From the NCBI GenBank assembly GCA_016184225.1, contig JACPDA010000004.1:409671-473670 (forward strand): DNA of 64,000 bases, written 5' to 3'. Below the pieces are notes generated by a model. That model made no database searches and was not told where the DNA came from. It saw only the letters and a list, made by a program, of their open reading frames with translations. Shown one piece after another: positions 18,275-47,752 of the stretch; position 1 is the stretch's first letter; every line of letters starts with the position of its first letter. A program made the translations under genes and the position numbers. This DNA is from Candidatus Daviesbacteria bacterium. GTDB taxonomy: Bacteria; Patescibacteriota; Microgenomatia; Daviesbacterales; UBA10151.

Positions 18275-19148
18275 CCAAATCTTCTATTATTTCCTCCCAG
18301 CTTCTGAATTTCATCCCTAACTTTTTTTCAGTTTGTTCAACTTTTAATCCGCCGAATTGAGGATATCTTGACTGGTTATCTTTCAGAAACGGTTCGATAC
18401 TGACAGGTTTGACGACATCCTTTTTGCCCCTGGCTCTTTCTATCAGTAGATTTGCTAATTTATGTGGTGTAAAGAGATTAGAACTGGAAGCATGAAAAAT
18501 TCCGATTGGTCTTTTATGCAACATAACTTCTAAAGTTTCTGTTACTTCATTAATATAAGTCAATGTTAAATATTGGTCGTTAAACATTGGATAGAGTTTG
18601 CCACTGTCATATAAGGTTAGGATCTTTCTCACATAATCAGATTTTAATTCATAATTGCTTCTTACCGGATTAGAAATTCGTAAGATGGCAAAGTTTTTGA
18701 TATTATTTATAATCTGTCTTTCAGCTTCCCTTTTTGTCCATCCATACCACGATAACAGATCAGGATTTTCTTCCGGAGTTTCATCTTCTGAGTAAGGTCC
18801 CGGATTTTCTTTACTGCCGGAGAAAATGACATCCGTAGAGATTGCAATGAAAAAAGTATCAGGATTTAGGGATCGGATCAAATTAGTTGTTCCTTCTACA
18901 TTTACTATCCAGCACGGTGCATTTTTATTATTTCGCTGTTCCTCAGCTTTAGATACGTCAGTAAAAGCTGCAAAATGAATAACAGTATCCGGATCATGCA
19001 TTTTAAAGAAATCCTTTACGGATTTTAGGTTTGTAATATCCAGTTCGTCTTGGGAAGGAGATAAAATAACAATGTTCTTGCTTGATTGATAATTTTCAAC
19101 AAAGTGTGATCCTACTAATCCATTGCTACCGGTAACAAGTATCTTCAT
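18255..19148 (-). CDS. RmlD-like NAD(P)-dependent sugar reductase/epimerase (dTDP-4-dehydrorhamnose reductase family).
   Basis: MKILVTGSNGLVGSH, DPDTVIHFAAFTDV, ISTDVIFSG and YGWTK (YxxxK) follow the RmlD substrate-binding-domain pattern. Confidence 0.6.
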   Translation of the reverse strand: MKILVTGSNGLVGSHFVENYQSSKNIVILSPSQDELDITNLKSVKDFFKMHDPDTVIHFAAFTDVSKAEEQRNNKNAPCWIVNVEGTTNLIRSLNPDTFFIAISTDVIFSGSKENPGPYSEDETPEENPDLLSWYGWTKREAERQIINNIKNFAILRISNPVRSNYELKSDYVRKILTLYDSGKLYPMFNDQYLTLTYINEVTETLEVMLHKRPIGIFHASSSNLFTPHKLANLLIERARGKKDVVKPVSIEPFLKDNQSRYPQFGGLKVEQTEKKLGMKFRSWEEIIEDLATQLSA

Positions 19149-19894
19149 ATATTTTGTAATGGCTTTTTAAAGAGTTCTGTTACAAATCCCATTCTAGCCA
19201 GAATGTAAAACAGCAATATCTTGAATGTGCCCAATGAGTATTTTATACTATTTTTTAAACTGGCCCCCCTTTTGTTACCGGTGTAACTAGTTTCTACAGG
19301 AACTTGGGATACCTTAATTCCGTGATAAACGGCTTGTGCAATTAATTCAAAACTAAATAAATAGTTATTGGAATTTACTTCATAATTGATTTTTTTCAGC
19401 ATTTTCTTAGTATATACTCGGAAGCCCTGATGGAAATCATCTAAATCAACTCTTAGTATTATTTTATCAATAAAGTTTAAGGTTCTGATAGGAATCCATT
19501 TCCAAAAATACATCCCGCTTCGGAGGGGATTATCTAAGGAGGTGAAACGGTTACCCAGAACAAACTCTGATCCAGCTTTAATTTCTTTTAGCGCCTGTGG
19601 GATAGCCGATGTTTTATATTCTCCATCAGGATGAATGTCAATGATTATTTCTGCCCCACTTTCAATAGCCAAATTCAAGGCTCTTTTCATATTTCCTCCA
19701 TAACCTAAGTTAAGAGGGTTTTTATACGAAGTAATCTTTATTTTTTTTGCAAGCTCAAATGTATTATCTTTTGATGCATCATCAACCAAAATGATCTCAT
19801 CTACAAGTTTTTTGGGAAAATTTTTGTAAAATTTTTCCAGAGTTTTAGCTGCATTATAAGCTATAAATACGGCGACTATCTTTCTCTTTTTCAT
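19145..19894 (-). CDS. GT2 glycosyltransferase (DPM1-like).
   Basis: IVAVFIAYNAAKTLE...IILVDDASKDNT...IIDIHPDGE. The listed ORF runs to 20008, but the internal ATG (MKKRKIVAVF) at 19894 removes the head-to-head overlap with the divergent gene at 19917. Confidence 0.7.
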   Translation of the reverse strand: MKKRKIVAVFIAYNAAKTLEKFYKNFPKKLVDEIILVDDASKDNTFELAKKIKITSYKNPLNLGYGGNMKRALNLAIESGAEIIIDIHPDGEYKTSAIPQALKEIKAGSEFVLGNRFTSLDNPLRSGMYFWKWIPIRTLNFIDKIILRVDLDDFHQGFRVYTKKMLKKINYEVNSNNYLFSFELIAQAVYHGIKVSQVPVETSYTGNKRGASLKNSIKYSLGTFKILLFYILARMGFVTELFKKPLQNI

Positions 19895-19916
19895 CTGATA
19901 TATTATATTAGCTTCT

Positions 19917-21737
19917 ATGACTAACTTAAAGACTCTTTTGATCTTTTTATTGACCGCTGTCCTGATTATATTTTTGGGATTCGATTTTCTGAAACCGGCA
20001 TTTGACATAGGTCTTACACCGGAAGATCGGGAATTTATTTTGCGTTACAAATTAATTGGTCAAAACCCTCTTACTAAGATATTGCAGTTTTGGTCAGAAC
20101 GCGGCGCTTATACCACTATTCCGATCTATTATATTGGAATAGTGCAAAGCATAGCAGGTTTTAACTATCAACTTATTCAGTTTATTGGTATGGTGCTTAG
20201 AGTTCTTGCTGCTTTATCAATTTTTCCTTTAACAAACCTTCTTTTTAAAAATATGCCACTCGCCTTTCTTGCAACAATCATATTCGCCTTTAGCTACACA
20301 ACTACAGGGGCGCTGGAAACAGGCGTTGAACCCAGTGAATATTTGGGTCTCTTTGTAATGAATATATTTTTAATTGCTTATTATTTTCTCAATACCAAAT
20401 ATTTTTTAAATATTTGGTGGTTACTTTTAACATCTCTTCTACTATTTGTTGCCGTAATGGCATCAATAATGAGGGTATATCCCATTTTATTTTTTATACC
20501 TATGGTTGAGATTTTTTTACTATTTTCAAACCGCAAGAAATACAAATTTAAGTACCTATTTTACAAACTTTTTATTTTCTATTTGCCTTTTTTTCTTCTT
20601 GTTCGTTTTTCACCTTCTGCAACCTCAGGTCATTTTTCGCTTCCCACAATTTTATTAAAAATCGCTCAGGGTAATTGGCATTTGTTACTAATCCCTTTTC
20701 AGGGATTAGGTTTTATGATACCGGTATATATGGCGTTTTTATTGGGAGGTCCATTGATTATATTTGGTTTAATGAGTTTAATGTTGTCTCTTGTTTGTAC
20801 TACACAGAAACTGCCCTTTTTTCTTAGGGTATTACTTTTGAATTTTGGCCTTGAAACATTAGCATACTGGATAATACAACGAAGATTATTGTCGCCTGTG
20901 GAGCTAAGGATGAATTTTGATGCCGCACATCTCTACCCGATTTTATTCGGCTTATTCATTTTTTCTCTTATGATAAATTCTTTGATTGATTGGTATAGAA
21001 GTGGTAAAAAGAATAATCTACTTTTTATACTGTGGATGGGACCTTTCATAGGATTATTTTTTATAACTATGACCTACATCTTCGCTGGTATAAATCTTTC
21101 TTTCGGAGGTGCACAAGATCATTATCTTCTGATACCAACAATAGGGATAAGTCTTTTTATAAGCGGGATATTGCTGGCAATGTATGAAAGATTGTCGGTT
21201 ACGCGATTTAAATCTATCGGGGGTTTTGCAGTTGTGGTAATTATACTTGCGTTCCTTTATGGGCTCAATAGAGAAAAGACTCACAGCTACTTCACGGGTG
21301 CAAATTATAACGGAAGAGCAGCAGCGGGTCAGGAATTTCTTCAGGGTAAGATAAGAGAAATATTTAGGAATTTGGATTATTCTAAACCAGTATTAGTTTA
21401 TTTTGATACTTCTGATATACCTGATGGAAAGGGCCCTTTTTATTCCGAAGGACTACTAACACCATTTCCAGTTTTGATGTATTTTAGAGGAGAGAATATA
21501 GTTAATGGTTGCATTGGAGTTATTTATGAGAATAGAAAAATGAAGAAGTTGAAAAAAGCTATTAAAATAATTGGTAATCAGCAGGCCATAGTTTATCAGA
21601 CTACATGTGTTGAAAATGGGAAAATAAATATTCAGGATGTTATTTATAAGGCCGATAATTTCTATGCATTGAAAATTAAAGATGAAAATCTTATTAATAT
21701 TAAGGATCAGGTAATTAAGGAATTAAAATTTAGATGA
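19917..21737 (+). CDS. Member 1 of a six-gene paralogous family of polytopic membrane proteins. Putative novel GT-C-like glycosyltransferase.
   Basis: TM1, then DIGLTPEDREF...ERGAYTT loop, about 12 TM helices, then a soluble C-terminal domain with VYFDTSD...GC(I/V)GVIYE...FYALKIKD..LINIKD. See the family finding. Confidence 0.55.
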   Translation: MTNLKTLLIFLLTAVLIIFLGFDFLKPAFDIGLTPEDREFILRYKLIGQNPLTKILQFWSERGAYTTIPIYYIGIVQSIAGFNYQLIQFIGMVLRVLAALSIFPLTNLLFKNMPLAFLATIIFAFSYTTTGALETGVEPSEYLGLFVMNIFLIAYYFLNTKYFLNIWWLLLTSLLLFVAVMASIMRVYPILFFIPMVEIFLLFSNRKKYKFKYLFYKLFIFYLPFFLLVRFSPSATSGHFSLPTILLKIAQGNWHLLLIPFQGLGFMIPVYMAFLLGGPLIIFGLMSLMLSLVCTTQKLPFFLRVLLLNFGLETLAYWIIQRRLLSPVELRMNFDAAHLYPILFGLFIFSLMINSLIDWYRSGKKNNLLFILWMGPFIGLFFITMTYIFAGINLSFGGAQDHYLLIPTIGISLFISGILLAMYERLSVTRFKSIGGFAVVVIILAFLYGLNREKTHSYFTGANYNGRAAAGQEFLQGKIREIFRNLDYSKPVLVYFDTSDIPDGKGPFYSEGLLTPFPVLMYFRGENIVNGCIGVIYENRKMKKLKKAIKIIGNQQAIVYQTTCVENGKINIQDVIYKADNFYALKIKDENLINIKDQVIKELKFR

Positions 21738-23623
21738 ACATGTTAATTAAGATTATTTCTGGACCATTCTCGATTATGATAATGATATTATTAGTTGCGT
21801 CACTCCAATATTTCCTGCTTTATGATTCGCTAACTTTGGGTTTTAAACCCGATGATTGGATATTATATTTCAATTATAAATTACTGGGAAGTGACCCATT
21901 GTCTAAAATTTCGTATGTCTGGTCCCAAAGGGGTTTGTATACTACATACCAGGTTTATTATATGGGATTACTAGATAGTTTATTTGGCCTGAATTATTAT
22001 ATCTTTCATTTAAGCAGTTTGATCTTAAAGATTATTGCAATTCTAGGGTTATATCCTTTAATCAGAATATTTTTTAAGAGTAGATTATTGGCTTATTTGG
22101 TAGTTTTCTTGTTTTCTATTAGTCATTCTGCAGTGGGTCCGTTAGAGTTTGTAGTCAAAGGCAGCGATTATCTTGCAATAATTTGGATGGAGGCATTTTT
22201 ATTAGCATATTATTGGATACAAAACAATAAATTCTTGAGTTGGAGGTATTACTTCATATTGCCGATATTTTTTATTCTTGCATTTTCTTTTTCACCGATT
22301 AGAATGTTTCCTCTCCTTGCGATACCGTTTCTAACAGAAGTTTTTTTGATTCTGAGAAATTTTCATCCGATTACCATTAGAAAATCACTGGTTAAACTCT
22401 CAATCATCTATTCGCCATTTATTATCGCCTTTATACTAATGAAACCTGCTTCTTTGTTAGCTGATGCGTATGGACCAAATGGAATATTGAAAAAGGTTTT
22501 AGATGGTAATTGGTATTTATTGCTAGCACCGTTCTCAGGAATGGGTTACTCATTTATTACAAATGATTATTGGAGAGAAATATTCGGTTTGATCATGGCG
22601 GACAATCTCAAAAATTACCTGAATTTTCTTTTAGGTGGACCGACGGTTATCTGTGGTATGCTAACCACTTTTGTTGTATGGTCGCAAATTCAAAGGCACA
22701 AAATCCTTTTTATTGTTTCCACAATGTTATTGAATTTCTTATTTCAAATCCTGATTTATTTCGTAGCATTTCATCACCGCAAACTGCCTTTTCTACAAGT
22801 AAATTATGATCCAGTCAATTTATACTCTATCATCTTTGGCGGATATATAATCATAATTGGATTCATGATTTTTTTAAACTGGTTAAAGAGTAAGGAAAAA
22901 GATAGGCTTTCAATGGCGTTCTGGATGGGTTCAGCTTTTCTTTTTGTCTTTACTTATTTAACATGGGCTTTTGCGCCTTTAGGCACAGGCTTTAGAGATA
23001 CGAGTTATTACTTAGTCGTGGGATCAATGGGATCATCGCTTATGATAGGAGCCTTTTTGGTTTCGTTCTACAATAAATTAAAGTCCATGACTGGCAGACT
23101 GGGATTTTTAGCATTTGTTGTTTTTTTGATTCTCATTCCGATTTTCAAGATGAGTGGTCAGGAAATCCTTCAAAGTTATTCTTCGTTAAATAGAGACGGA
23201 CGTGGTGCAAATGGGCAAATTGTGATGCAAAAAGAAGCCAGAAGAATGTTGGCTGATTTTAAAGCAGGAGATTATATTCTAGTTTATTTTGATACGTCTG
23301 ACATTACTGGTTTAGGACCATTTTATTCTGAAGGTTTTCTGACGAGTTTTCCTTTTTTTATGCTCCTCCAGAATGGAAAGGTGATTGATGGTTGCATTGG
23401 AGTTATCTACGAAGATAATAGAATGGTGCAACTTATTAAATCGATTCAAATTCAAAATGGAATAACAGGATTCAGTTTTCCTGCTTCATGTGTAGATAAT
23501 GGGAGAATTCGTTCAAAGGATTTATTCTTTACTTTTGATCATTTCTATGCCTTTAGAATTAAGGATAAGAAATTAATTAATATTAAAGAGGAAGTACTTA
23601 AAGACCTGAGGTTTTATAATTAA
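21734..23623 (+). CDS. Member 2 of the family, tandem paralog of the preceding gene. Putative novel GT-C-like glycosyltransferase.
   Basis: GFKPDDW loop motif after TM1. C-terminal VYFDTSDITGLGPFYSEGFLTSFP...GCIGVIYED...FYAFRIKDKKLINIKEE nearly identical in pattern to member 1. ATGA overlap with the upstream gene. Confidence 0.55.
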   Translation: MNMLIKIISGPFSIMIMILLVASLQYFLLYDSLTLGFKPDDWILYFNYKLLGSDPLSKISYVWSQRGLYTTYQVYYMGLLDSLFGLNYYIFHLSSLILKIIAILGLYPLIRIFFKSRLLAYLVVFLFSISHSAVGPLEFVVKGSDYLAIIWMEAFLLAYYWIQNNKFLSWRYYFILPIFFILAFSFSPIRMFPLLAIPFLTEVFLILRNFHPITIRKSLVKLSIIYSPFIIAFILMKPASLLADAYGPNGILKKVLDGNWYLLLAPFSGMGYSFITNDYWREIFGLIMADNLKNYLNFLLGGPTVICGMLTTFVVWSQIQRHKILFIVSTMLLNFLFQILIYFVAFHHRKLPFLQVNYDPVNLYSIIFGGYIIIIGFMIFLNWLKSKEKDRLSMAFWMGSAFLFVFTYLTWAFAPLGTGFRDTSYYLVVGSMGSSLMIGAFLVSFYNKLKSMTGRLGFLAFVVFLILIPIFKMSGQEILQSYSSLNRDGRGANGQIVMQKEARRMLADFKAGDYILVYFDTSDITGLGPFYSEGFLTSFPFFMLLQNGKVIDGCIGVIYEDNRMVQLIKSIQIQNGITGFSFPASCVDNGRIRSKDLFFTFDHFYAFRIKDKKLINIKEEVLKDLRFYN

Positions 23624-25337
23624 TCCTTATTTGTTCAAGCTGCTTTCTTGCCTCATTGGTGACGTTTACCATATTATCTTTCCCCTGCAAATAAAAGGCA
23701 TAAACTCTATCAGTGGGTACTGGTTTTACCGGGTAGCCATAGGCTGGTAAAGCTTTTCCATCTGTGACTGCAGAAATAACCTGATTAAAATTATCCATTG
23801 GAACAGGAATACCCCCATCTTCCTCCCTTATATTATAAAGTATTGCCATACGGGGTGGAAATCCAAAGGTAATAACATCGTGTAAAATCCCTCCGTTGGT
23901 GCCGTCCCCTTCAAAGTAGAAAATAATCGGCTCTTTACTTTTGCCAATCTCCGGGATATGCGGAATTTTATCCCAAACTTTACTGAAAGTTTCCTGGCTG
24001 TGAGAATTTAGCAAAGTATTTATATAAAGACGGCTAGAGGCGATATGAATAATTAGAAAAAGACAAAAGAAGACGAAGAGGGTTACCTGGTGTTTTTTTT
24101 CTTTGCCTAAGCTAATTAAGGCTGCAAAAAGTATGGTAACCCCTATGGCTGAGACTATTAAATAACGGTAAGTGGTGGGGAAGATTGATGTTGGTGCCCA
24201 CCACCAGGCAAAAAAGAAGGAGAGGATAGCCCAGAAGGCTCCTAAAAATAGAGCTTGAGAGCGCAGGAAGCTTATCAGAATAAGGGTGTATCCTCCAATC
24301 AAAAGTGAAAAAATCTGATTTGTGTTATTGAAAGAGTTTTGGTTACCTCTATAGATTAAAATAACCGAAACTCCCCACAACCCTAAAGCAATTAATAGGT
24401 TAATAAAAAATTTAGAGTTGAACTTACCTGCATTTTTGATGATAAAAAAGGCAATAACGGAAAAGATGAGCGTTGTCAATATAAGCATAGGAAGCAGTTG
24501 TCTGATTGCATTAATTTGTCCCTGCGGCCCTATTAAATCAGGAATCAACATACTTCCAAACATCACAACAGGGTAAAAGATAAAATCAAATCTGCCCTGT
24601 GCAAGCATTTGCATATCTTGTGTTAATCCGATCAGGAATCTCTCCATAGGTTCTTGGGGCGGGCCTTGGGATTGTCCGGTAAACCTGATAACTAAAAAGA
24701 TAAATACAATGATTGAAAATCTTAACGCAGCCACTTTTACAACTTTTAGACTTCTTTTTTGAAAAACCCAAAAAAGTTCCAGAAGGAAAATGAAAGGCAA
24801 AGAACCATGCATTCTGATGGGAGTTGTAATATAAGCAAGATAATAAAGCACACCGGCCACTATCAAAATAGGAAGCCTTTTATCCTCTCTTGCTTTAAGA
24901 AAGAAGAAAAGAAACAGATTAAACAGGGCAATGGTAATATAGGTAGGCATATTAAAGACCCAGTTTGTTGCATCAAATCCTATTACTGTAATTGAGAAAA
25001 AAATTACTGCGAAAAAAGAGGCAATCTTGCTTTTGGTGAGATAAAAAACCAAAGGATAAAATGAGAAAGCAGCAACGATTCTGAATGTATAAGAAGTTAA
25101 ATAATACCACGTTGATTCAAAACCAACAGTTTTTTGCATAACTCCCATTAAAATATCCTGGGCGCCATATGGTGTTAAATAGTAAGTTAGATGATTCCAT
25201 GCACCCGGAGATTTTGGTCCCAAATGTTGAAAGTATCTAAAAAAAGCCAGCCAATCGTCTCCAAACAGATTTAAAGAAAAAGTTTGGTAAATGGTAAATA
25301 AGCTAATCGAGATGACAGCAATAAAGAAAATCAGCAT
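23598..25337 (-). CDS. Family member 3 (subfamily Y). Putative novel GT-C-like glycosyltransferase.
   Basis: NLFGDDWLAFFRYFQHLGP after TM1, about 13 TM helices, C-terminal IIFYFEGDGTN...VTFGFPP.MAILY...VYAFYLQGKDNMVNVT. Confidence 0.55.
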   Translation of the reverse strand: MLIFFIAVISISLFTIYQTFSLNLFGDDWLAFFRYFQHLGPKSPGAWNHLTYYLTPYGAQDILMGVMQKTVGFESTWYYLTSYTFRIVAAFSFYPLVFYLTKSKIASFFAVIFFSITVIGFDATNWVFNMPTYITIALFNLFLFFFLKAREDKRLPILIVAGVLYYLAYITTPIRMHGSLPFIFLLELFWVFQKRSLKVVKVAALRFSIIVFIFLVIRFTGQSQGPPQEPMERFLIGLTQDMQMLAQGRFDFIFYPVVMFGSMLIPDLIGPQGQINAIRQLLPMLILTTLIFSVIAFFIIKNAGKFNSKFFINLLIALGLWGVSVILIYRGNQNSFNNTNQIFSLLIGGYTLILISFLRSQALFLGAFWAILSFFFAWWWAPTSIFPTTYRYLIVSAIGVTILFAALISLGKEKKHQVTLFVFFCLFLIIHIASSRLYINTLLNSHSQETFSKVWDKIPHIPEIGKSKEPIIFYFEGDGTNGGILHDVITFGFPPRMAILYNIREEDGGIPVPMDNFNQVISAVTDGKALPAYGYPVKPVPTDRVYAFYLQGKDNMVNVTNEARKQLEQIRINYKTSGL

Positions 25338-25357
25338 GTTTAGATAATACTTGAGAT

Positions 25358-27145
25358 TTAAGGGTTAGACAATAGCTCTTGCAATTTTTGCCGGGTCTGC
25401 CCAGTAATATTAACTAAGTTATCTTTTCCTAAAAGCTGGAAAGCGTACACGCTTTCAATGCTAATTGGTTTGTCTTTGCCAATGGATTTTCCGTCTGAAA
25501 CTGCGGAGACAACTTCTTTCCAGTCGCTCATTGGTTGAGGAATCCTTTCCTCCTCAGAAATTTTATAAAGTATGGCCATATGGGGTGGAAAGCCGAAAGT
25601 TACAGAGTTGCGTAAGATGGGTTCATTAGTGTCATCCTCCTGGAAATAAAAAATAAGAGGTTCAGAGGTTTTACCTACTTGGGGAATATACGGCATTTGG
25701 GACCAGATTTTCTTTGTGGTCTCTTTGTTACGGGTAGTATATTCGACCGCCAAAAAAAGTTTTATATAGGAAGCATGACTTATTTGCAAAATTACCGCAA
25801 TGAACAATAAGATCAGCATACTTTGACGGTTTTTACCAAGACTGATAATTTTTGCCAGCAGCAGCGAGATGCCGACTCCGGAAATTATCAGATAACGGTG
25901 AGAAGTTGGGAATATTGCTGATGTGTTAGCTTGCCACCAGGGGTAAAGATTTGAAATTATTGTCCAGCCTAAAGCGATTAACAAACCGCCTTTTAGAGGG
26001 GTTTCTGCTTTAAGGTAAAGAAACAGATTTAAAACTAATATTAAAAGATAACCACCGATTAAAAGCGCCGATGCATTATTAGCATTAGCAAGAACAAGAG
26101 GGTTAATTTTTAACAGGATTAAGGATAAAATAGCCCAAATAGTCCCAAGTAAGATACCGGTGTAAAAGGACTTAGTTTTTAAATTGCTGATGGTGTGTTT
26201 TGCAACAAACAATATAACTATATAGAAAAAAAAGATCGGCAAAAATATTCTAAAAAGATATTGGCCGGCATTTTCTATCCGCCACCCCTGCGGTTGAAAA
26301 GCATCGGGAACAACAATATTTCCTAAAGTTGCAATGGGATAAAACAAGAAGTCAAAATTACCCGAGGATATAAGTTGGAAACTATGTTTAAGGCCTATTA
26401 AAAGACCGCTAGCAGGGCTTCCGCTAATAGTTTCTTTGAAACCAAGCAAATAGATCAAAAAATAGACAACAAAAAAACCTGAAATCTTTAGTCCAGAATC
26501 AATGAAGTTCCATCTTTTTGTAAAAAGGGCCATTAGTATTTCAAAAAAGATTAGGAAGGGGATAAGACCATGGGCCCTGATAGGAGTTGCCAAAAAAGTT
26601 AATGCAAAGAAAAGATAAATTAACAAAAGAGTCTTTATTTTCTTTCCAAAATTCAGAAATTGTTCGCTGTTTTGGAAATATTTTAAAGAAAAAAACAGCA
26701 TGAAACTAAAGAAGATAATGGAGATATAAGAGGGCATGTTAAATACCCAGCTTGAGGCGCTTATCCCGACTGAGGAAAATAAGAAAAAGAAAACGGCAAA
26801 CCATGCTGCCCGCTTACTTTTTGTTAGAAGGGAAGCCGGAAAGTATAAGGAGAGGGCAGCGATTACTCTTAGCGTATAAGATAATAGAAAATAAATATTG
26901 GAATCACTGCCAAAGGCTTTATAAAGAAAGGCCATAATAGTATCTTGGGATCCATAAGCATTAAGGAGGTATTTAAAGATATTAAAATATTCCGTTGAGT
27001 AAGGCCCCAAATGTTTGGGCGCATCTAAATAATATGAATATCTGAATATGGCAAGCCAATCATCTCCAAAAAGTCCCAAGTTAAAAAAAGGCATAAAGAC
27101 CCAGAGGTTAAGCAGTAATAGTAGAATAGAAATTAGCAGAAACAT
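25358..27145 (-). CDS. Family member 4 (subfamily Y). Putative novel GT-C-like glycosyltransferase.
   Basis: LGLFGDDWLAIFRY after TM1. C-terminal LIFYFQEDDTNE...VTFGFPPHMAILY...VYAFQLLGKDNLVNIT. Closest paralog of 23598..25337. Confidence 0.55.
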   Translation of the reverse strand: MFLLISILLLLLNLWVFMPFFNLGLFGDDWLAIFRYSYYLDAPKHLGPYSTEYFNIFKYLLNAYGSQDTIMAFLYKAFGSDSNIYFLLSYTLRVIAALSLYFPASLLTKSKRAAWFAVFFFLFSSVGISASSWVFNMPSYISIIFFSFMLFFSLKYFQNSEQFLNFGKKIKTLLLIYLFFALTFLATPIRAHGLIPFLIFFEILMALFTKRWNFIDSGLKISGFFVVYFLIYLLGFKETISGSPASGLLIGLKHSFQLISSGNFDFLFYPIATLGNIVVPDAFQPQGWRIENAGQYLFRIFLPIFFFYIVILFVAKHTISNLKTKSFYTGILLGTIWAILSLILLKINPLVLANANNASALLIGGYLLILVLNLFLYLKAETPLKGGLLIALGWTIISNLYPWWQANTSAIFPTSHRYLIISGVGISLLLAKIISLGKNRQSMLILLFIAVILQISHASYIKLFLAVEYTTRNKETTKKIWSQMPYIPQVGKTSEPLIFYFQEDDTNEPILRNSVTFGFPPHMAILYKISEEERIPQPMSDWKEVVSAVSDGKSIGKDKPISIESVYAFQLLGKDNLVNITGQTRQKLQELLSNP

Positions 27146-27154
27146 TTTTAATTT

Positions 27155-28303
27155 TTATACACCGCTAAGTGTCTTAACAGTTTTTACCCATATTCGCATC
27201 GAGTATGCAAGGTGGTGAAAATACCCGCGCGTTGCGGCATTCCAAATAAAACTGTCAAATTTTTGAACAGCATCCTCCATCTGTGATGCCAGACTTAAGT
27301 AGCTTTCCGCGTATGATGATCCCTCCAGTTTAACTTCTGTGAGCCAGTTTAGAATATCTTCCAGGACAATTACACACATAAATTCGTAATTTAAATCCTT
27401 TATCGCGTTATGAGTATTTCTTATGTGGTTTATAATAGGGGATCCGACACGAATATTAAACCCTAAGTGCTTTACGCATGCCTGAGCAAAAAAACCGCTG
27501 AAAATATCGCCGTACCTATCAATAGATAAACCTGATATCGGATACCCCATTTTTACAAACCAGTATGAAGGAATTACTGCTCGGTTTAAGCTGGTATTTT
27601 GGGTATTTATCGGCGTCCAAGTTTTGTTTGCAAGTACTAACGATTTCTTTTTGAAAGAAATAGCATTAGGTTTAACACCAAGCCAGGTAATAGCATCTAC
27701 ATCAGGAGCTTTTAACCACAGACCGGCATTCATATGGATTTCAACATCAGAGTTTTTTTGAGTGTACTTCTCTTGTTTAAATCTGGCAAAGTATGGAAAA
27801 CCTCTCGCGTAAACAACTCCGGGATTTGAAAAATTCAGCAAGCTGCATATATTAAACCAACCATTGCTATCTTGAATAGTGACACTTTTATGCTTCCCTC
27901 TTCCAACCACCTCATGTTCTTTAAAAAAGTCTTTGCCTTTAATGGGAAAGTTATCATCATCTATTGAAATGATTACCTCATCTCCAAGCTCGTATGCCAT
28001 TAGATAACCAACGTTTCTTCTGCTGTCTGAATTATAAGGGACAGTGTTGAATATAGGACCCAGTTTTCTTAGGTATTCATCCTGATCATCTAAAGTGGGA
28101 CAAAGTATATTAAATCCCCTTCTTTTAATGTCTTTGCATTTTTGATAAAGCTCTTTAGGAGTTTTTCTGTCAGGAATAATAATAAGCCTTGTTTGGTCCT
28201 CCACTTTTTCCTCGGTCATTTTTTGGACGTAAGTTTCTAGAAAATTACCTTCGTAGATAGAAGTTGCAACGACTGAGAATTTAGTTTTTCTATCTTTTTT
28301 CAT
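27155..28303 (-). CDS. RGP/GT75-family protein (reversibly glycosylated polypeptide / UDP-L-arabinopyranose mutase homolog).
   Basis: Colinear blocks match plant RGP/UAM as I recall it: LGP.........[22 protein letters not shown] against [47 protein letters not shown] against [29 protein letters not shown] against [35 protein letters not shown] against RYDDMWAGWCVKVICDHLG. Confidence 0.6.
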   Translation of the reverse strand: [382 protein letters not shown]

Positions 28304-28983
28304 GCTATTAATTCCTGGTAAAACAACTTTAACTGGTCCAGGCCTGTTTTAAGTGAGGGAAATGTGCTTTTCCCATAGACCCTTTTTCCTTCTTTAGTCG
28401 GGAATTCCGTTATTTTAACACCGGTCTTTAATGCCCTGATTATCTGTTGATAGTCTGATGCATTCGGGGGCGGGATTTTTATCCTTAATTTTTCATAAGC
28501 CTTCCGTGCGAAAGCGCGGTAACCCTGCGTAGGATCTGTGCATTTGTTGCCTCCTCTTCCCCATACAATAGTTGCGATAAGTCCCATTCCCTGACAAAAC
28601 CACTTACGCGGCTTCAAGAGCTGGTCATCCTCTTCATTATATCCATCTTTTCCCATTCTTCCGGCAATGATGAATTCAAACCCCTCTTTAAGCAGCTTAA
28701 CAAATTTTTTAAGATCATAAGGTTCCATATTTCCGTCCGGGTGAAAAAATATTAAGGTATCTTCTTTTGTGTTTCTCCAGGCAGATTCGTATGCTCCGCC
28801 CACCCCTTTATATTTTTGCGGGAAGACCTCTATACCTTTACTTTTCCAAAATTCCTGAGTTCCGTCTGAAGAATTTGCATCAATGACATATATCTTATCC
28901 ACTAAATTTTTAGGGATCCTGCCGAATATTTTTTCCGAATTTCTCCGCTCGTTCTTGGTAAAGATTATCAGTGCAATTTTCAT
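28300..28983 (-). CDS. GT2 glycosyltransferase (DPM1-like, short form).
   Basis: MKIALIIFTKNE...VIDANSSDGT...FFHPDGN GT2 motifs. ATGA overlap with the RGP-like gene. Confidence 0.75.
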   Translation of the reverse strand: MKIALIIFTKNERRNSEKIFGRIPKNLVDKIYVIDANSSDGTQEFWKSKGIEVFPQKYKGVGGAYESAWRNTKEDTLIFFHPDGNMEPYDLKKFVKLLKEGFEFIIAGRMGKDGYNEEDDQLLKPRKWFCQGMGLIATIVWGRGGNKCTDPTQGYRAFARKAYEKLRIKIPPPNASDYQQIIRALKTGVKITEFPTKEGKRVYGKSTFPSLKTGLDQLKLFYQELIA

Positions 28984-28991: not shown

Positions 28992-29675
28992 TTATTGTTT
29001 TTTACTAAGAACCGCAAGACCATTATAGACAAGAAAAATTGAAAGAGAGTACTCCGGATGTGCATGTACAAAATCATTGCAAGCTTTCTGGATATGAGGA
29101 ATCCATTTAAGATCATCAACAATTATATGACTGGCATCCAATTTTGCCATTCCAATAAGGTCATTCATACATGCTTCGTATGAGTGATCTCCGTCAACAA
29201 CTCCTAATATGGTTTTACCATAGTATTTTTTCTTAATTGCATTACTGCGGTCTTCAAAAAACTTATCGCTTTTTTCCACTACAAACTCGAATCTGTTTTT
29301 GCCGTACAGTTTTTCTAAATATGCTATGCCTTGTTTCCAGTTGCCATAAGGAAAGGCGTCCACGGAAATTAATTTTCCGCTTTTCACTTTTGGCCACTCT
29401 GATTTAACGTAGGATAGAAACTTCGTGTCTCCACTCAAAATCCCTTCTTCAACTCTTTCTCCATCCATCAAAAAACCGTCTGTGAGAGCTTCGAGCAAAA
29501 ACAGCGCTGATTTTCCCCAAAGATGTCCTATCTGGATTATTAAACCTGGTTTATAGAACTTGACTAAAGAGTAAATCAGAAAAGCCACTTCATCAATTAC
29601 CCATCCGGTCCTGTCAGAAGCTTTTGTAATACTTTTAAGTTTTGCTAGATGCTTTTTGAATTGTAATATATTCAT
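28992..29675 (-). CDS. Putative class I SAM-dependent methyltransferase (TylF/CmcI-like, Methyltransf_24 type).
   Basis: GLIIQIGHLWGKSALFLLEAL (Rossmann-like) and ILGVVDGDHSYEA, reminiscent of the VDGDHSYE motif of macrocin/cephalosporin O-methyltransferase-like proteins. Confidence 0.45.
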   Translation of the reverse strand: MNILQFKKHLAKLKSITKASDRTGWVIDEVAFLIYSLVKFYKPGLIIQIGHLWGKSALFLLEALTDGFLMDGERVEEGILSGDTKFLSYVKSEWPKVKSGKLISVDAFPYGNWKQGIAYLEKLYGKNRFEFVVEKSDKFFEDRSNAIKKKYYGKTILGVVDGDHSYEACMNDLIGMAKLDASHIIVDDLKWIPHIQKACNDFVHAHPEYSLSIFLVYNGLAVLSKKQ

Positions 29676-29805: not shown

Positions 29806-31695
29806 ATGAATAAAGTAGTTAACAAAAGATCTTTGTGGATATTTTTATTGTGTGCCGTAGTTGTGGTTTTGACCCAATTTTCAATTTTACGGCCGATTAT
29901 AGATTTTTCGCTATTTACAGAAGATGATTGGAATTGGCTTTTTTATTTTAGATCTTTGCCGGATCTCAATTTTTTGCAAAAATTATTTTTAACATGGACA
30001 AAAATTGGCATACATGAAGGCGGATATGCAATTTATATAGGCATATTGGGGATACTTTTCGGAAATCATTATTCCCTATATCAATATGTAAATATAGCTT
30101 TCAAAATAATCGCGACCCTCACCCTTTTCCCTTTAATTTTAATCCTTTTTAGAAACAGACTGCTGGCGTTGCTGACTACTGTAATCTACGGGATAAATTC
30201 AGCATCAACAGGTTCCTTTTATTGGTTTATGAAAGGTGGTATTTTCCCAGCGATAGCACTTATGAATTTATTTTTCATTACCTATTACTATACCATGATA
30301 AAAAAAACAAAAATTTTGTTAATGGTATCTTCAGTTTTGATAATTCTGTCTTATTTAAATTCCCCCACCAGAATATTTCCACTCTTTTTTATAATTTTCG
30401 GCGTTGAAACTTATTGGATAATTAAATATAAATCACCAACTACGGTTAAAAATTCTATCATCAGGCTTGTGTGTTTTTTACTGCCTTCAATATTAATTGC
30501 TATGATAGCGCCTGTATCCCCCAATGGAAGGGTTGTTGAAACGCCGGGCGTTTTGCTAAGTCAAATTCTGGCAGGAAATTGGTTTAATCTTCTTTCTCCG
30601 TTTGCAGGTATTGGATATTCTCTTTTGACTGTTGAGAATATGAGAATTTTTGGATTTATGGATTTTTCTACTTTTGCCAGTCTAAATAATTATTTATCCT
30701 ATCTTGCGAAAGGAAGCGTTTGGATTTTTCTATTATCTTTATTTTTTCTTTCACTCTTAATACCGAGAAAGCCTTTACGGTTTATTATCACAGCTTTTTG
30801 TATAAACTTTGTTTTGGATATCCTGATGTATTTTATAGCAAGCCACCACTTGACTATTGCCCCGGGGTTAGTTCAACAAATGGACCCATCCTTATTTTTT
30901 CTAACTAAGTATCCAACCCTGGTGGCGATTTTTATTCTGGTGGTGGCTTTGATGGCATTTTGGGAATGGTTAAAAGGAAAAAAAGATTACTTGTTGGTGG
31001 CGATAACCATTGGGCCGGTATTTTCATTAATATTTCTTTCTTTAATGTGGGTAACCATAGCTTATTTGCTGGACGGATATAACAGTATCCATTATTATTT
31101 TCAGATACCGGCAATTGGTATTTCACTTTTCTTTGCTGCTGTTTTGGTTTTATTTTATAAAAAGTTTAAGAAAAAGTATGCACGGATGTTAGTAGCAGTA
31201 ATGATTACCGGGATTATTATTGGTTTTTATCGATCGAGCAGTTTTGCAATTAACCGCGAGTTTTTAGGAATTTATCCCGAGAACGTAAGGATAAAAGACC
31301 AACAAATTTTACATGGTAAATTAATAAAGAAAATGGGGGAATTTAATAGAGCAGGTAATATTTTGGTATATTTTGAGCTTCCAAAAGATAATTTAAGCTT
31401 TAAATATTATAAGCGTGCGCTACTTTTGGATTCTATATCATTTGCCACGATGATAAAATGGCAGGTTAAAGGGGATGGATCGGGGTGTATAGGGAGCGTT
31501 AACGATATCAATATTTTAATTTCATCCTATCAACTTAAGGATGGTAAAGAGGGTTTTATAACCAGCGGTAGATGCAGGCAAGTAACAGAAAAGAATGTTT
31601 TTTACAACTTAGACGATCTTTATGCATATAAAGTGGAAAAAGGTGAATTTATAGATATTAAAGATAATTTATTAAAGGAATTAAAACTTCCGTGA
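29806..31695 (+). CDS. Family member 5 (subfamily X). Putative novel GT-C-like glycosyltransferase.
   Basis: IDFSLFTEDDWNWLFYF after TM1, about 13 TM helices, C-terminal ILVYFELPKDN...GSGCIGSVNDI...LYAYKVEKGEFIDIKDNLLKELK. Confidence 0.55.
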   Translation: MNKVVNKRSLWIFLLCAVVVVLTQFSILRPIIDFSLFTEDDWNWLFYFRSLPDLNFLQKLFLTWTKIGIHEGGYAIYIGILGILFGNHYSLYQYVNIAFKIIATLTLFPLILILFRNRLLALLTTVIYGINSASTGSFYWFMKGGIFPAIALMNLFFITYYYTMIKKTKILLMVSSVLIILSYLNSPTRIFPLFFIIFGVETYWIIKYKSPTTVKNSIIRLVCFLLPSILIAMIAPVSPNGRVVETPGVLLSQILAGNWFNLLSPFAGIGYSLLTVENMRIFGFMDFSTFASLNNYLSYLAKGSVWIFLLSLFFLSLLIPRKPLRFIITAFCINFVLDILMYFIASHHLTIAPGLVQQMDPSLFFLTKYPTLVAIFILVVALMAFWEWLKGKKDYLLVAITIGPVFSLIFLSLMWVTIAYLLDGYNSIHYYFQIPAIGISLFFAAVLVLFYKKFKKKYARMLVAVMITGIIIGFYRSSSFAINREFLGIYPENVRIKDQQILHGKLIKKMGEFNRAGNILVYFELPKDNLSFKYYKRALLLDSISFATMIKWQVKGDGSGCIGSVNDINILISSYQLKDGKEGFITSGRCRQVTEKNVFYNLDDLYAYKVEKGEFIDIKDNLLKELKLP

Positions 31696-34466: not shown

Positions 34467-35948
34467 TTATATCAGTTTGGCTCTTTTTAACTCTTCGTCT
34501 AATCTGGCTGGATCATTTTCCCTAAAATGTATGGATCGGAGGCCATATCTGGCGCGGGCAGTAGTTGTATAGACAGGGTTATCATCTATAAACAAAACTG
34601 ATTGAGGATTAGGGTTACTGAGCCGTTTAAGCAGGATCTGAAAAGCAGGACTATTAGTTTCTATTTTTGCAGTATTTATTCTACTAGAGATAAGGATGTG
34701 ATCCGGGGGAATTTGGGGATATTCCTTTGCAATCCAGTTAAAGACTGTGGTAGCTACCGGGTGTATGCAATCTGACAGGACATAAAGTTGGATATTGGGG
34801 TTTTGGGCGAGTGATCGAACCAAATCCTGCATTCCATTTATCGGATTATAAATTTCAGGTTGTCTAAAAGGTGCCCTGGCCTGGTCAAGATTTTCCGGAT
34901 AAGGCTGCCCCATTTTGTCCCAAAACCTCCTTAAATATTCCTCCTCACTTATTTTGTTACCAAAAGCTTCTGGGTTTAAATCATTCATAGCCAAAATAAC
35001 ATCTTCATAAGCTTGGCTAAAAAAACTTGCCAAACCCTTGAATAAAGCAGAATCGGCGTCTTGGAAAAGAACACCTCCTGCATCAAATACAACAGTTTCA
35101 ACAGGAGGTCTTTTGAGAGTCTCATCGACTTTTGGATCCAAAGTTTCTTGAGCCTCATTAAGATTCCTTAAATACCTTTGATTGTTCTGGAGAGAAAATT
35201 CTTCAAATGCGTCTTTACATATCTCTTCTATTGTAATCCCGTATCTCATCCTTAAAAATTCTATTTCATCAAAAACTAAATCGATTGCCAGTTTTTGTTT
35301 GCCTTTTTCGGCTAATGCCCGAAGTCCAAATCTTTCCGAAGCAAAAATCCCCCCTGCGTATCTACGGAGTTGTGTTTCATTGTATCTTTTCTTTTGAGCA
35401 ATGGAAAAAGGAGCTCCATCGGGATTTAACTTACCTAGATTATCAGCAAGATCTAAAATGATTTGCGGCAAAGTTAGATCGTTAATACTTATTACTACTT
35501 TTCCTCTGCCTAAAATTTGGGGTATTGGAGGATGTTTAGCTTCCAGATTTTGTCTTACTCCGATATTTCTGTCAAAAAGTCGATTGACAACGTTTTTTCT
35601 AAAATACCGGTGCGGTATTACAAGAGAGCCAACATCGTCAAAAAACTGCAGGACTTCCGCTTCATAAGGATACAACTGATCCGATCCGACATTTTGGGCT
35701 ATGTGTCTTGCTATTATTGAACTGTAAACAATGTGTTCCCAATAACTTGGGAAGACTCTAAGGTGGGCATAAGGTGCTACTAATAATATTGCAAGTCTTG
35801 TCTTTACAACATCCTCGTCTGTAAAAGGTTTATCCTGAACCAATGCTGTAGCAGCCAAACTATCCTTTAAGATTTCTGTTATAACCGGCCCTCTGATTTT
35901 AACATCAGCTCTTTCGGTTTGCAGTATCGCGTTAGCAGTTCTTTCCAT
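34467..35948 (-). CDS. Two-domain hydrolase: N-terminal HD-like domain plus C-terminal HAD-superfamily hydrolase.
   Basis: C-terminal VVFDAGGVLF (HAD motif I) ... VLFIDDNP (motif IV-like). N-terminal H..H and FFDDVG are suggestive of an HD phosphohydrolase fold. The N-terminal assignment is weak. Confidence 0.45.
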   Translation of the reverse strand: MERTANAILQTERADVKIRGPVITEILKDSLAATALVQDKPFTDEDVVKTRLAILLVAPYAHLRVFPSYWEHIVYSSIIARHIAQNVGSDQLYPYEAEVLQFFDDVGSLVIPHRYFRKNVVNRLFDRNIGVRQNLEAKHPPIPQILGRGKVVISINDLTLPQIILDLADNLGKLNPDGAPFSIAQKKRYNETQLRRYAGGIFASERFGLRALAEKGKQKLAIDLVFDEIEFLRMRYGITIEEICKDAFEEFSLQNNQRYLRNLNEAQETLDPKVDETLKRPPVETVVFDAGGVLFQDADSALFKGLASFFSQAYEDVILAMNDLNPEAFGNKISEEEYLRRFWDKMGQPYPENLDQARAPFRQPEIYNPINGMQDLVRSLAQNPNIQLYVLSDCIHPVATTVFNWIAKEYPQIPPDHILISSRINTAKIETNSPAFQILLKRLSNPNPQSVLFIDDNPVYTTTARARYGLRSIHFRENDPARLDEELKRAKLI

Positions 35949-36010: not shown

Positions 36011-37021
36011 ATGATAAATTGTGGATTAATCGGTTATGGATACTGGGGACCGAATATTGCTAAATCTTTAAACAGGATTAAGGGTATTAATTTGGCGGTT
36101 ATTTGCGATAAGGATTTAGGTAGACGTAAAGAAGCTAAACTATTATATCCTCGCGCTGAAATTACCAACGGTGTTGATTTTTTATTTAATCACGCGAATT
36201 TGGATGTAATTATAATTGCAAGTCCTGCCAGCACTCATTATGAACTGGCTGTTAAAGGTTTAAAAGCAGGCAAACATCTTTTAGTAGAAAAACCACTAAC
36301 TTTAACTGTTAAGGAGGCTGAAGATTTAATTCGGATTAATGATAAAGCAAAAAGGGTAGTGATGGTGGGTCATACTTTTGAATATAACCCTGTAGTTTTG
36401 AAGATAAAAAAAATAACTAAGGAGGAAAATTTTGGCAAAATTTATTATATTTATTCAACCAGAGTGAATTTAGGACAGATCAGAGGGGATGTAAATGCGC
36501 TGTGGAATCTGGCACCTCATGATATTTCTATATTAAATTTTCTTTTGGACAAAAACCCCGAGCAAGTGATGGCAGCAGGCGCATCTTTTTTACAGAAAGA
36601 TATTGAAGATGTGGTTTTTATAATACTCCGCTATCCTAATAATGTTTTAGCAGAAATACATCTTAGTTGGTTGGATCCTGCTAAGGAAAGAAAGGTTACT
36701 GTGGTGGGTTCAAAAAAAATGCTGGTTTTTGATGACTTAGATAATGAGATGCCTCTTAAGATTTATGATAAAAGAGCGGATACAAACGAGATTGCAAAAG
36801 GTCTAGCTACAGAGTATAAGATTAAATTGCATTCTGGTGATATTTATGCTCCTCAGATTGAAAATAAGGAGCCTCTTTTAGAAGAACTAGATCACTTTTT
36901 TGATTGTATAAAATACAATAAAAAACCATTAACGGATTTAGAAAATGGTTTAAGAGTAGTTAAGGTTTTAGAAGCGTGTCAAAATTCTCTACAAAATAAT
37001 GGAAAATGGGTAAAAATCTAA
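36011..37021 (+). CDS. Gfo/Idh/MocA-family NAD-dependent sugar oxidoreductase (WbpB-like nucleotide-sugar 3-dehydrogenase).
   Basis: GLIGYGYWGPNIAKS Rossmann N-terminus, EKPLTLTVKEAEDL, characteristic C-terminal alpha/beta domain. Followed immediately by acetyltransferase and aminotransferase genes. Confidence 0.7.
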   Translation: MINCGLIGYGYWGPNIAKSLNRIKGINLAVICDKDLGRRKEAKLLYPRAEITNGVDFLFNHANLDVIIIASPASTHYELAVKGLKAGKHLLVEKPLTLTVKEAEDLIRINDKAKRVVMVGHTFEYNPVVLKIKKITKEENFGKIYYIYSTRVNLGQIRGDVNALWNLAPHDISILNFLLDKNPEQVMAAGASFLQKDIEDVVFIILRYPNNVLAEIHLSWLDPAKERKVTVVGSKKMLVFDDLDNEMPLKIYDKRADTNEIAKGLATEYKIKLHSGDIYAPQIENKEPLLEELDHFFDCIKYNKKPLTDLENGLRVVKVLEACQNSLQNNGKWVKI

Positions 37022-37572
37022 AAAATATAAAAACTGAAGAGTTTGTGGTTATAGAATCAGGTTCAACTTTTGGAGACGGTTGTTTAATCCGATCGCATAC
37101 AATTATTTACGGCGGAAATAAGATAGGCAATAATTTCCAAACCGGCCATGGAGTTCTGATAAGAGAGAATAATAAAATCGGGAATAATGTAAGCATAGGA
37201 AGTCATAGTGTTGTTGAGCATGATGTCGTAATAGAAGATCATTGCCGGATACATTCCAATGTCTTTATTCCTGAATCTTCAGTTTTAAAAAAAAATTGTT
37301 GGATTGGCCCTTGTGTAGTTTTGACAAATGCCAAATACCCAAGATCTAAAAACGTCAAGCAAAATTTAAAAGGGGTTATAGTATCTGAGAATGCTAAAAT
37401 AGGAGCAGGAGCTGTAATTTTACCCGGAGTTAAAATCGGCCAAAATGCTTTAGTCGGAGCAGGCAGTGTAGTTACAGAAGATGTTTTAGAAAATGTAGTT
37501 GTTGCGGGAAACCCGGCAAAAGTGATAAAAAATATTTCGGAAATAAAAGCTTATGAAGAAACAAATCTTTAA
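37006..37572 (+). CDS. Left-handed beta-helix (hexapeptide-repeat) N-acetyltransferase, WbpD/PglD-like.
   Basis: Repeated [LIV]G..xx[LIV] hexapeptide pattern (IGNNFQTGHGVLI, IGNNVSIGSHSVV, IGAGAVILPGVKIGQNALVGAGSVV). Confidence 0.7.
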   Translation: MGKNLKNIKTEEFVVIESGSTFGDGCLIRSHTIIYGGNKIGNNFQTGHGVLIRENNKIGNNVSIGSHSVVEHDVVIEDHCRIHSNVFIPESSVLKKNCWIGPCVVLTNAKYPRSKNVKQNLKGVIVSENAKIGAGAVILPGVKIGQNALVGAGSVVTEDVLENVVVAGNPAKVIKNISEIKAYEETNL

Positions 37573-39636: not shown

Positions 39637-39640
39637 ATAT

Positions 39641-47749: not shown

Positions 47750-47752
47750 TTT

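Follow-up and report, generated by a model that had tools for sequence, protein, structure and literature searches.

As of 2023, MtdL and Hyg20 were the only characterised bacterial members of glycosyltransferase family GT75 (PMC9937993). MtdL, an enzyme of the A201A pathway, interconverts GDP-L-galactopyranose (GDP-L-Galp) with GDP-L-galactofuranose (GDP-L-Galf), as well as the two ring forms of GDP-L-fucose (GDP-L-Fuc), and uses Mn2+ rather than flavin (PMC9937993). Here, we describe a GT75 gene found at positions 27155–28303 of a 64-kb stretch of DNA (hereafter, the window) from a Candidatus Daviesbacteria genome of the Candidate Phyla Radiation (CPR). The window has ~36% G+C and is almost wholly occupied by a glycan-biosynthesis supercluster. 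The gene probably encodes an MtdL-type mutase, its likeliest substrate being GDP-β-L-Galp made by a GDP-mannose 3,5-epimerase (GME) from the same window, and its product, GDP-L-Galf, would be incorporated into a surface glycan; we put the probability of this reading at roughly 0.6. The two genes are as follows.

27155–28303, minus strand: GT75 mutase of the MtdL type, predicted Mn2+-dependent GDP-L-Galp (or GDP-L-fucopyranose, GDP-L-Fucp) mutase (Pfam, PDB and residue matches)
10106–11083, plus strand: GME, 325 aa (PDB 2c59, conserved motifs)

Family membership of the GT75 protein

The open reading frame (ORF) at 27155–28303 starts with ATG and encodes a protein of 382 aa, which is 100% identical to 'hypothetical protein HYU45_02540' of the NCBI database, from a metagenome-assembled genome of Candidatus Daviesbacteria (769,731-bp contig). 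A first-pass annotation, made from the sequence alone, had described this ORF as a homolog of the plant reversibly glycosylated polypeptides (RGPs), or UDP-arabinopyranose mutases (UAMs), quoting the DDD motif and two further motif blocks, all of which are indeed found in the translation. The proposed family is borne out over the full length of the protein by the match to PF03214 (RGP, CAZy GT75; E 2.1e-20, 73.7 bits, curated cut-off 23.8), in which residues 36–379 are aligned with profile positions 29–340 of 342. None of the NCBIfam models matches the protein, and it has no flavin-binding domain.

Within the family, the nearest solved structures are the five MtdL entries (7xpr and related, deposited as 'Transglycosylse'). 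The PDB sequence search aligned residues 7–381 with residues 7–376 of 7xpr (E 1.5e-97, 330 bits), and the full-length alignment of the two proteins gives 40.6% identity. The match to 8cid, the sole solved UDP-arabinopyranose mutase, covers residues 86–331 with E 3.4e-6 and 29.4 bits, and a profile of 28 homologs likewise scores 3.5e-132 against MtdL and 5.3e-11 against 8cid. By sequence, the protein thus belongs to the MtdL/Hyg20 branch of GT75. The family itself is already known; what is new is the context, a CPR cell-envelope glycan in place of an antibiotic pathway. In our literature search combining GT75 or RGP with Patescibacteria or CPR, none of the papers listed joined the two.

Active site and nucleotide preference

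For residue comparison, the mutase, MtdL from Marinactinospora thermotolerans (locus L078, itself recovered as a relative in the genome scan with 40% identity over the best segment) and 181 homologs were aligned using MAFFT with fast settings (183 sequences). We compared 20 MtdL positions which, according to crystal structures and mutants, bind Mn2+, nucleotide or sugar or are catalytic (PMC9937993). In the mutase, 18 of the 20 residues are identical: T14, I16 and D45 of the base pocket, together with S92, D93, R96, D115-D116-D117, N118, R167, D201, Q235, R263, D266, H293, R295 and H298. Of these, D115–D117, N118 and R167 correspond to MtdL D109–D111, N112 and R159, and D201, Q235, R263, D266, H293, R295 and H298 to MtdL D195, Q229, R257, D260, H287, R289 and H292; each of these 12 active-site residues is conserved in at least 99% of the sequences. 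The DDD motif emphasised by the first-pass annotation and R167, the conserved nucleophilic (autoglycosylated) arginine of the RGFP motif, are kept in 181–183 of the 183 aligned sequences, and the putative Mn2+ ligands D117 and H293 are both conserved in the mutase. The two mismatches, K47 for MtdL N42 and T234 for S228, are in both cases the family majority (Lys in 175/183 and Thr in 167/183 sequences). The protein keeps the catalytic apparatus of an NDP-pyranose/furanose mutase and is encoded in a glycan operon, and the presence of a furanose sugar in the glycan is a reasonable inference.

The residues of the base pocket also bear on the nucleotide. The base determinants of MtdL have been defined by isothermal titration calorimetry and mutants: T13 and S86 control the preference for guanine over uracil, T13P weakening and S86D abolishing GDP binding, and the D87S variant is inactive on GDP-L-Fuc (PMC9937993). 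In active plant UAMs, MtdL positions 13, 42, 86 and 87 are occupied by Pro, Asp, Asp and Ser, respectively (PMC9937993); the N-terminal part of 8cid is unaligned, and the position of the plant Pro is taken from that study alone. In the guanine-selecting set (MtdL T13, D40, N42 and S86), T14, D45 and S92 of the mutase are identical and N42 is replaced by K47. At all three positions corresponding to MtdL T13, S86 and D87 the mutase has the GDP-type residue (T14, S92 and D93), and the UDP-type base-pocket residues find no match in its T14, K47, S92 and D93. Since T14, S92 and D93 are of the MtdL type and the MtdL mutants T13P, S86D and D87S are impaired, the mutase is predicted to use GDP- rather than UDP-sugars.

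Supply of the sugar nucleotide

GME makes GDP-L-galactose; the A201A pathway pairs it, under the name MtdM, with MtdL. In a PDB sequence search with the short-chain dehydrogenases/reductases (SDRs) of the window, the product of 10106–11083 matched Arabidopsis GME (2c59) with E 6.9e-117 over residues 5–321. The GME motifs SSACIYPE, DAYGxEK, GGREKAPAA and RGRNSDN are conserved; we take these to carry Cys145, Tyr174/Lys178, Lys217 and Arg306.

Among the window ORFs of at least 100 aa, none was identified as ManB, ManC, Gmd or Fcl. The best Fcl score in the window, 131 bits against a cut-off of 500, belongs to GME itself. From their length, the ORFs at 37553–38671 and 38668–39636 had been guessed to be Gmd and Fcl, but NCBIfam and Pfam identify them as a DegT aminotransferase and an SDR resembling UDP-xylose synthase (UXS) and ArnA, respectively. 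The latter matches human UXS1 with E 6e-43 and, as its closest structure, PDB 8vr2 with E 5e-80; a literature search on 8VR2 found nothing relevant. Among the remaining sugar-nucleotide genes, 54633–55943 is UDP-glucose dehydrogenase (UGDH)-like (284 bits to AglM), the ORF at 14217 is more like a UDP-ManNAc dehydrogenase, and 15551–16507 encodes a generic GalE-like SDR. The UXS-, UGDH- and GalE-like genes are generic and unlinked to the mutase.

Distribution and gene neighbourhoods of the family

At 90% identity, homologs of the GT75 protein fall into more than 1,218 clusters, most of them metagenomic. PF03214 is present in each of the 120 homologs listed, and almost all of those with a name are called 'hypothetical'. 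At 50% identity the family comprises 1,958 clusters at E ≤ 1e-3 and 233 at E ≤ 1e-30, and a relative of the mutase is present in 241 species genomes. The phyla in which homologs occur include the CPR, Acidobacteriota, Verrucomicrobiota, Planctomycetota, Nitrospirota, Chloroflexota, Gemmatimonadota, Actinobacteria and some archaea.

Gene neighbourhoods were surveyed in 80 related loci. In 16 of them, a full-length GME ortholog (47–69% identity) is found no more than 10 kb from the GT75 gene, and in 9 of these 16 the gap is below 80 bp; among the 44 loci having at least 5 kb on both sides, 9 contain GME. The GME-linked loci include the MtdM–MtdL pair and two CPR loci, L002 (Woesebacteria) and L005 (Saccharibacteria). 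In neighbour clustering, GME and three kinds of family 2 glycosyltransferases (GT2s) turned out to be the commonest neighbours of GT75 genes, mostly co-directional and directly adjacent. An Fcl-like SDR is found near GT75 in two loci only, L014 (295 bits to NF047922) and L031, and no recurrent UXS or UGDH partner emerged from the 80 loci.

Several other neighbours recur. In L004 (11157–12128) and 13 other loci of Planctomycetota and other phyla (neighbour cluster 2), the GT2 directly downstream of GT75 resembles chondroitin synthase as well as WrtF, a fucosyltransferase dependent on GDP-fucose (9omh, E 4e-11). This GT2 could be a direct L-furanosyltransferase, unlike the GT2 resembling dolichol-phosphate mannose synthase (DPMS) of the CPR loci described below. 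A family of ~450 aa with 2–3 transmembrane (TM)-like segments and no Pfam match adjoins GT75 in L055 (8077–9576) and 6 other loci, mostly of Planctomycetota, whereas a soluble family of ~320–400 aa, also without Pfam match, stands beside GT75 in L005 (11119–12072) and 5 other loci, including those of Saccharibacteria.

The operon and its predicted glycosyltransferases

The mutase gene is the third of five genes in a minus-strand operon, for which the arrangement given by the first-pass annotation (methyltransferase, DPM1-like GT2, mutase and two membrane paralogs) holds, the methyltransferase being a weak match. The genes are separated by 8, −4 (ATGA overlap), 9 and 20 bp. The operon and the related genes of the window are listed below.

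28992–29675, minus strand: putative class I S-adenosylmethionine-dependent methyltransferase, 227 aa, first gene of the operon (Methyltransf_24, weak)
28300–28983, minus strand: DPMS/ArnC/GtrB-like soluble GT2, 227 aa (Pfam GT2, PDB 5mlz, AlphaFold2 (AF2)/Foldseek)
25358–27145, minus strand: memA, membrane glycosyltransferase of the GT-C fold, 595 aa from the upstream ATG, directly downstream of the mutase
23598–25337, minus strand: memB, GT-C paralog, 579 aa, last gene of the operon (38% identity to memA, alignment A2)
29806–31695, plus strand: memC, GT-C paralog, 629 aa, divergent from the operon (TM1 loop, conserved position)
21734–23623, plus strand: memD, GT-C paralog (TM1 followed by KPDDWI)
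19917–21737, plus strand: memE, GT-C paralog (TM1 followed by TPEDRE)
19145–20008, minus strand: DPMS-like GT2 paralog, 287 aa, adjoining memE (74.0 bits to the hidden Markov model (HMM) built from alignment A3)
13370–14131, minus strand: DPMS-like GT2 paralog (75.5 bits to the same HMM)

The end of the GT2 gene overlaps the start codon of the mutase by 4 bp. P. furiosus DPMS (5mlz, catalytic domain, E 4.5e-8) is the only PDB sequence match of its product. In a Foldseek search with the AF2 model (pLDDT, the predicted local distance difference test score, of 92), the top 13 matches are all DPMS, ArnC or GtrB, the best being DPMS (E 9.6e-15, TM-score 0.74, 25% identity). By its modelled fold, this GT2 would make a polyprenyl-phosphate sugar. 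The other window GT2s compared with the A3 HMM (3948, 8173, 31692, 45731 and 59610) score at most 33.5 bits or do not reach the E 1e-3 cut-off. The window may thus encode three polyprenyl-phosphate sugar synthases for at least eight GT-C enzymes, namely the five paralogs, two PMT_2 proteins and one PIG-V-like protein. The GT2s found beside GT75 in other phyla were also considered as members of the DPMS-like family, but they score only 15–45 bits with the family HMM, compared with 391 bits for the GT2 of the window; they fall outside this family, and therefore the lipid-linked step discussed below is proposed for the CPR clade only.

The methyltransferase at the head of the operon matches Methyltransf_24 with E 3.9e-5 and 24.9 bits, under the cut-off of 26.3 bits, and has no NCBIfam match. 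A methyltransferase with 82% identity occupies the matching position in the CPR locus L001. The block consisting of a memC ortholog, the methyltransferase (not always present), GT2 and GT75 is conserved in L001 (85% identity) and L002 (67%), where the memC orthologs adjoining GT2/GT75 share 74% and 41% identity with memC, respectively; the position of memC is kept in related CPR loci. Judging by contigs of equal length, the closest GT75 and GT2 homologs appear to co-occur on at least 8 contigs.

The membrane proteins encoded at 19917–27145 and 29806–31695 have no Pfam or NCBIfam match, and a profile of 39 sequences found nothing in the PDB. Structure prediction followed by fold search resolved them as GT-C-fold proteins. 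Consistent with this fold, the first extracytoplasmic loop, which follows TM1, carries an acidic motif: LFGDDWL in memB (12 TM-like segments) and FTEDDWN in memC. The memE/memD pair shares 20% identity with memA (alignment A2). The membrane paralogs that the first-pass annotation called novel thus have the GT-C fold. In the NCBI model (578 aa), the start of memA is probably placed too late. Translation from the upstream ATG at 27145 gains MFLLISILLLLLNLWVF; this stretch provides TM1 ahead of the conserved GDDW loop, the arrangement seen in the four paralogs.

Distant homologs of the DPMS-like GT2 (48–63% identity) are flanked by GT-C-like membrane proteins of 500–630 aa at every locus inspected, and these loci have no PF03214 gene. 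A STELLO (PF03385) protein is encoded near a homolog of this GT2 in three CPR loci, L083 (141–920, minus strand), L084 (8690–9667, minus strand; followed by an SDR gene) and L087 (2204–3190, minus strand). In tblastn searches, the STELLO genes of L083 and L084 proved to be distant relatives of GT75 (28–29% identity, 256–295 aa, E 1e-14 to 1e-16). There may thus exist a wider module of RGP/STELLO-like protein, DPMS-like GT2 and GT-C protein.

Proposed pathway and alternative readings

In the proposed pathway, GDP-mannose would be converted by GME (10106) into GDP-L-Galp, which the GT75 mutase (27155) would contract to GDP-L-Galf. By analogy with MtdL, Mn2+ would be bound by the last Asp of the DDD motif together with the conserved His, while the RGFP arginine would attack C1 of the sugar, upon which the ring would open and reclose through O4, and GDP would be re-attached. 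The DPMS-like GT2 (28300) could then move the furanose onto polyprenyl phosphate, yielding polyprenyl-P-L-Galf, and the GT-C paralogs (25358, 23598, 29806 and others) might use this lipid-linked sugar outside the membrane for the synthesis of an envelope glycan or glycoprotein. The methyltransferase at 28992 may methylate the sugar. The equilibria of such mutases favour the pyranose form, and a coupled consumer of the furanose would therefore make sense. Strong homology and synteny that recurs across loci support the first two steps; for the lipid-linked step, the evidence consists of folds and gene order. The data show the family, the conserved residues, the folds, the order of the genes and the repeated synteny, while the nucleotide, sugar, lipid intermediate and acceptor are what we infer, the substrate being deduced from homology and context. 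More tentatively, Microgenomates might make a lipid-linked L-hexofuranose donor by an undescribed route consisting of GME, GT75, a GT2 without TM segments whose translation is coupled to that of the mutase, and an expanded, divergent set of GT-C proteins; we regard this as possible but doubtful.

Several observations weigh against this scheme. GME is encoded 16 kb from the mutase in a separate plus-strand operon adjoining a GT4 gene, and could serve the incorporation of pyranosyl L-Gal only; neither GDP-mannose pyrophosphorylase nor phosphomannomutase was seen in the 64-kb window. GME is nearby in no more than a fifth of the surveyed loci (16/80), L014 and L031 having an Fcl-like gene instead. 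The family-majority lysine in place of MtdL N42 means that base recognition is not identical to that of MtdL. As for the lipid-linked step, the 227-aa GT2 contains no TM segment, unlike DPMS, ArnC and GtrB; TM helices are likewise missing from some DPM1-type enzymes. In place of the DAD of DPMS, the GT2 carries HPD (H81-P82-D83), which does not vary among 35 homologs. A search of the window ORFs of at least 100 aa for a GtrA-like flippase found none. Moreover, L082, from another Daviesbacteria genome, contains a close homolog of memA, and L083 and L085–L087 contain homologs of the GT2, in each case in the absence of any PF03214 gene, and therefore the GT2/GT-C pair is not specific to the mutase.

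The identity of the sugar could also be read differently. MtdL and Hyg20 both interconvert the forms of GDP-L-Fuc as well as those of GDP-L-Gal in vitro, and the sugar-contacting residues are the same, so that the protein might be a GDP-L-fucopyranose mutase like Hyg20, forming GDP-L-fucofuranose from a precursor for which Gmd and Fcl are encoded elsewhere in the genome. The Fcl-like SDRs of L014 and L031 and the resemblance of the GT2 beside GT75 in other phyla to WrtF point in the same direction. However, the 64-kb glycan region, in which Gmd and Fcl were not found, does contain GME, which is by far the commonest SDR partner of GT75 (16 loci compared with 2). We consider GDP-L-Fucp the second-choice substrate, a plausible alternative although an unlikely one. 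A more remote reading is that of the first-pass annotation, a UDP-L-arabinopyranose mutase like plant UAM/RGP, fed by UDP-glucose dehydrogenase, UXS and a 4-epimerase and leading to L-Araf in the glycan. The Pfam family is common to plant UAMs, GT75 enzymes are somewhat promiscuous in their substrates, and the window does have UGDH-like, UXS/ArnA-like and GalE-like genes. The annotation named the genes at 14217, 15551 and 38668 as possible sources of the precursor; they are generic candidates only, 14217 looks more like a UDP-ManNAc dehydrogenase, and the most relevant gene, GME, was missed. The UXS-like gene lies 10 kb off in a WbpB/D/E-like amino-sugar block, and the survey yielded no recurrent UXS or UGDH partner, whereas GME recurs. 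Furthermore, the score of MtdL is ~300 bits above that of the solved UDP-arabinopyranose mutase (330 versus 29 bits), T14 and S92 match the GDP type, and D93, which contacts the sugar, is shared with MtdL, where its change towards the plant residue (D87S) is inactivating. The first-pass annotation was right about a furanose-forming GT75 in a glycan operon, but the plant affinity, UDP-arabinose and the precursor genes that it named are not supported, and we hold the UDP-arabinose reading to be very improbable. In terms of sequence space, its view of the family as mainly plant or algal is wrong: at 90% clustering there are more than 1,200 homologs from prokaryotes, at 50% identity the family has 1,958 clusters, and 241 species genomes in many phyla contain a relative.

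Finally, GT75 members autoglycosylate a conserved arginine, which is present here as R167, and the protein might mainly act not as a mutase but by glycosylating itself on arginine, so as to prime or regulate glycan synthesis, in the manner of the non-mutase activity of RGPs. Yet all residues whose mutation abolishes the mutase activity of MtdL are conserved, including the His and Arg equivalent to H287 and R257, which are missing from the inactive plant RGP5 type, and the repeated occurrence of such genes beside one whose product forms a known mutase substrate is in keeping with a role in metabolism. The chances of such a priming or regulatory function seem slighter still than those of the UDP-arabinose reading. 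Overall, conversion of GDP-L-Galp to GDP-L-Galf by an MtdL-type mutase is the reading we prefer.

Other genes of the window

The supercluster contains numerous GT2 and GT4 genes, PMT_2- and PIG-V-like GT-C genes, a Wzx-like flippase, sugar-nucleotide dehydrogenases, SDRs, aminotransferases, C-methyltransferases and a carbamoyltransferase. At 36011–39636 (plus strand), a WbpB/WbpD/WbpE-like trio (GFO oxidoreductase, hexapeptide acetyltransferase and DegT aminotransferase) is followed by the UXS/ArnA-like SDR and then, at 39911–41620 (plus strand), by a NodU-like carbamoyltransferase. Together, these genes suggest a 2,3-diamino or carbamoylated uronic-type sugar, and the block (36011–41620) recurs in the other Daviesbacteria genome, L082. 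Sugar C-methyltransferases (Methyltransf_13/14) are encoded at 17027–18274 (plus strand) and 47753–49033 (minus strand). The latter is part of a minus-strand block at 46748–50880 which also includes a glucose-1-phosphate cytidylyltransferase-like gene (263 bits, cut-off 300), an SDR and a GFO oxidoreductase, and which points to a branched-chain CDP-deoxysugar pathway. A flavin amine-oxidase-like oxidoreductase (62496–63773, minus strand; NCBIfam PRK07233, 394 bits) marks the edge of the glycan region and adjoins a 632-aa protein without family match. Five large ORFs of 493–918 aa (11083–13404, 34467–35948, 41711–43246, 50875–53631 and 60587–62485) have no Pfam match, and the three that were also scanned against NCBIfam (34467, 41711 and 60587) have none there either; all five may represent further divergent membrane glycosyltransferases or polymerases.

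Implications

This locus and the ~2,000 clusters of the family indicate that flavin-independent GDP-L-hexose mutases are widespread in surface-glycan clusters of uncultivated bacteria, including the ultrasmall CPR organisms, the envelopes of which are almost unstudied. If the proposed pathway is correct, L-Galf (or L-fucofuranose, L-Fucf) would be a component of CPR envelope glycans, and the same sugars would be made by many uncultivated soil bacteria through the GME–GT75–GT2 cassettes of Acidobacteriota, Verrucomicrobiota and Planctomycetota, while the related STELLO-like module may do likewise for other sugars. Should the products be confirmed, L-galactofuranose or L-fucofuranose would be expected as a building block of environmental bacterial glycans, and the enzymes could readily serve as catalysts in making rare GDP-furanoses. 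The coupling of the mutase to a DPMS-like GT2 and GT-C proteins provides a testable hypothesis of a lipid-linked furanose donor other than the mycobacterial one. For genome annotation, a bacterial match to the 'plant RGP/UAM' Pfam family is a trap and should not be read as evidence of UDP-arabinose metabolism.

Comparison with known systems

The mutase can be aligned colinearly with the MtdL/Hyg20 type from end to end (~41% identity) and shares with it the DDD motif, the Mn2+-binding His, the nucleophilic Arg, all ligands of the sugar and diphosphate, the GDP-type Thr and Ser-Asp, and GME as a partner. It differs from MtdL in having Lys for N42 and Thr for S228 and in the location of the epimerase gene, which is adjacent there and 16 kb away here. 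The two known enzymes come from actinomycete antibiotic clusters (A201A and hygromycin A), in which they are coupled to soluble tailoring transferases, whereas here the mutase belongs to a CPR cell-envelope glycan supercluster and is coupled to a DPMS-like GT2 and GT-C proteins. The plant UAM/RGP proteins (8cid, OsUAM1 and AtRGP1–3) have in common with it the Pfam/CAZy family, the GT-A-like fold, the DxD motif, the RGFP/RGYP arginine and a metal-dependent, flavin-free ring contraction, but they use UDP-sugars, display Pro, Asp and Ser where the mutase has Thr, Ser and Asp, and act in the cytosol and at the Golgi in the synthesis of cell-wall arabinans.

The association of a polyprenyl-phosphate-GT-like GT2 with adjacent genes for GT-C-fold transferases is reminiscent of the GtrA/GtrB/GtrC, ArnC/ArnT and CsbB/GtcA/YfhO systems. 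By contrast with these three-component systems, the GT2 is devoid of a TM domain, and no GtrA-like flippase was found in the window. As in the mycobacterial system of decaprenyl-phospho-arabinofuranose and the Emb/Aft GT-C proteins, the lipid-linked sugar would be a furanose, although in mycobacteria the furanose derives from phosphoribosyl pyrophosphate, whereas here it would come from a nucleotide sugar through the GT75 mutase. The FAD-dependent UDP-galactopyranose mutase (Glf/UGM) likewise converts an NDP-pyranose into an NDP-furanose for glycan assembly, but does so with an unrelated fold and cofactor, relying on reduced FAD in place of the Mn2+ and Arg predicted for the CPR enzyme.

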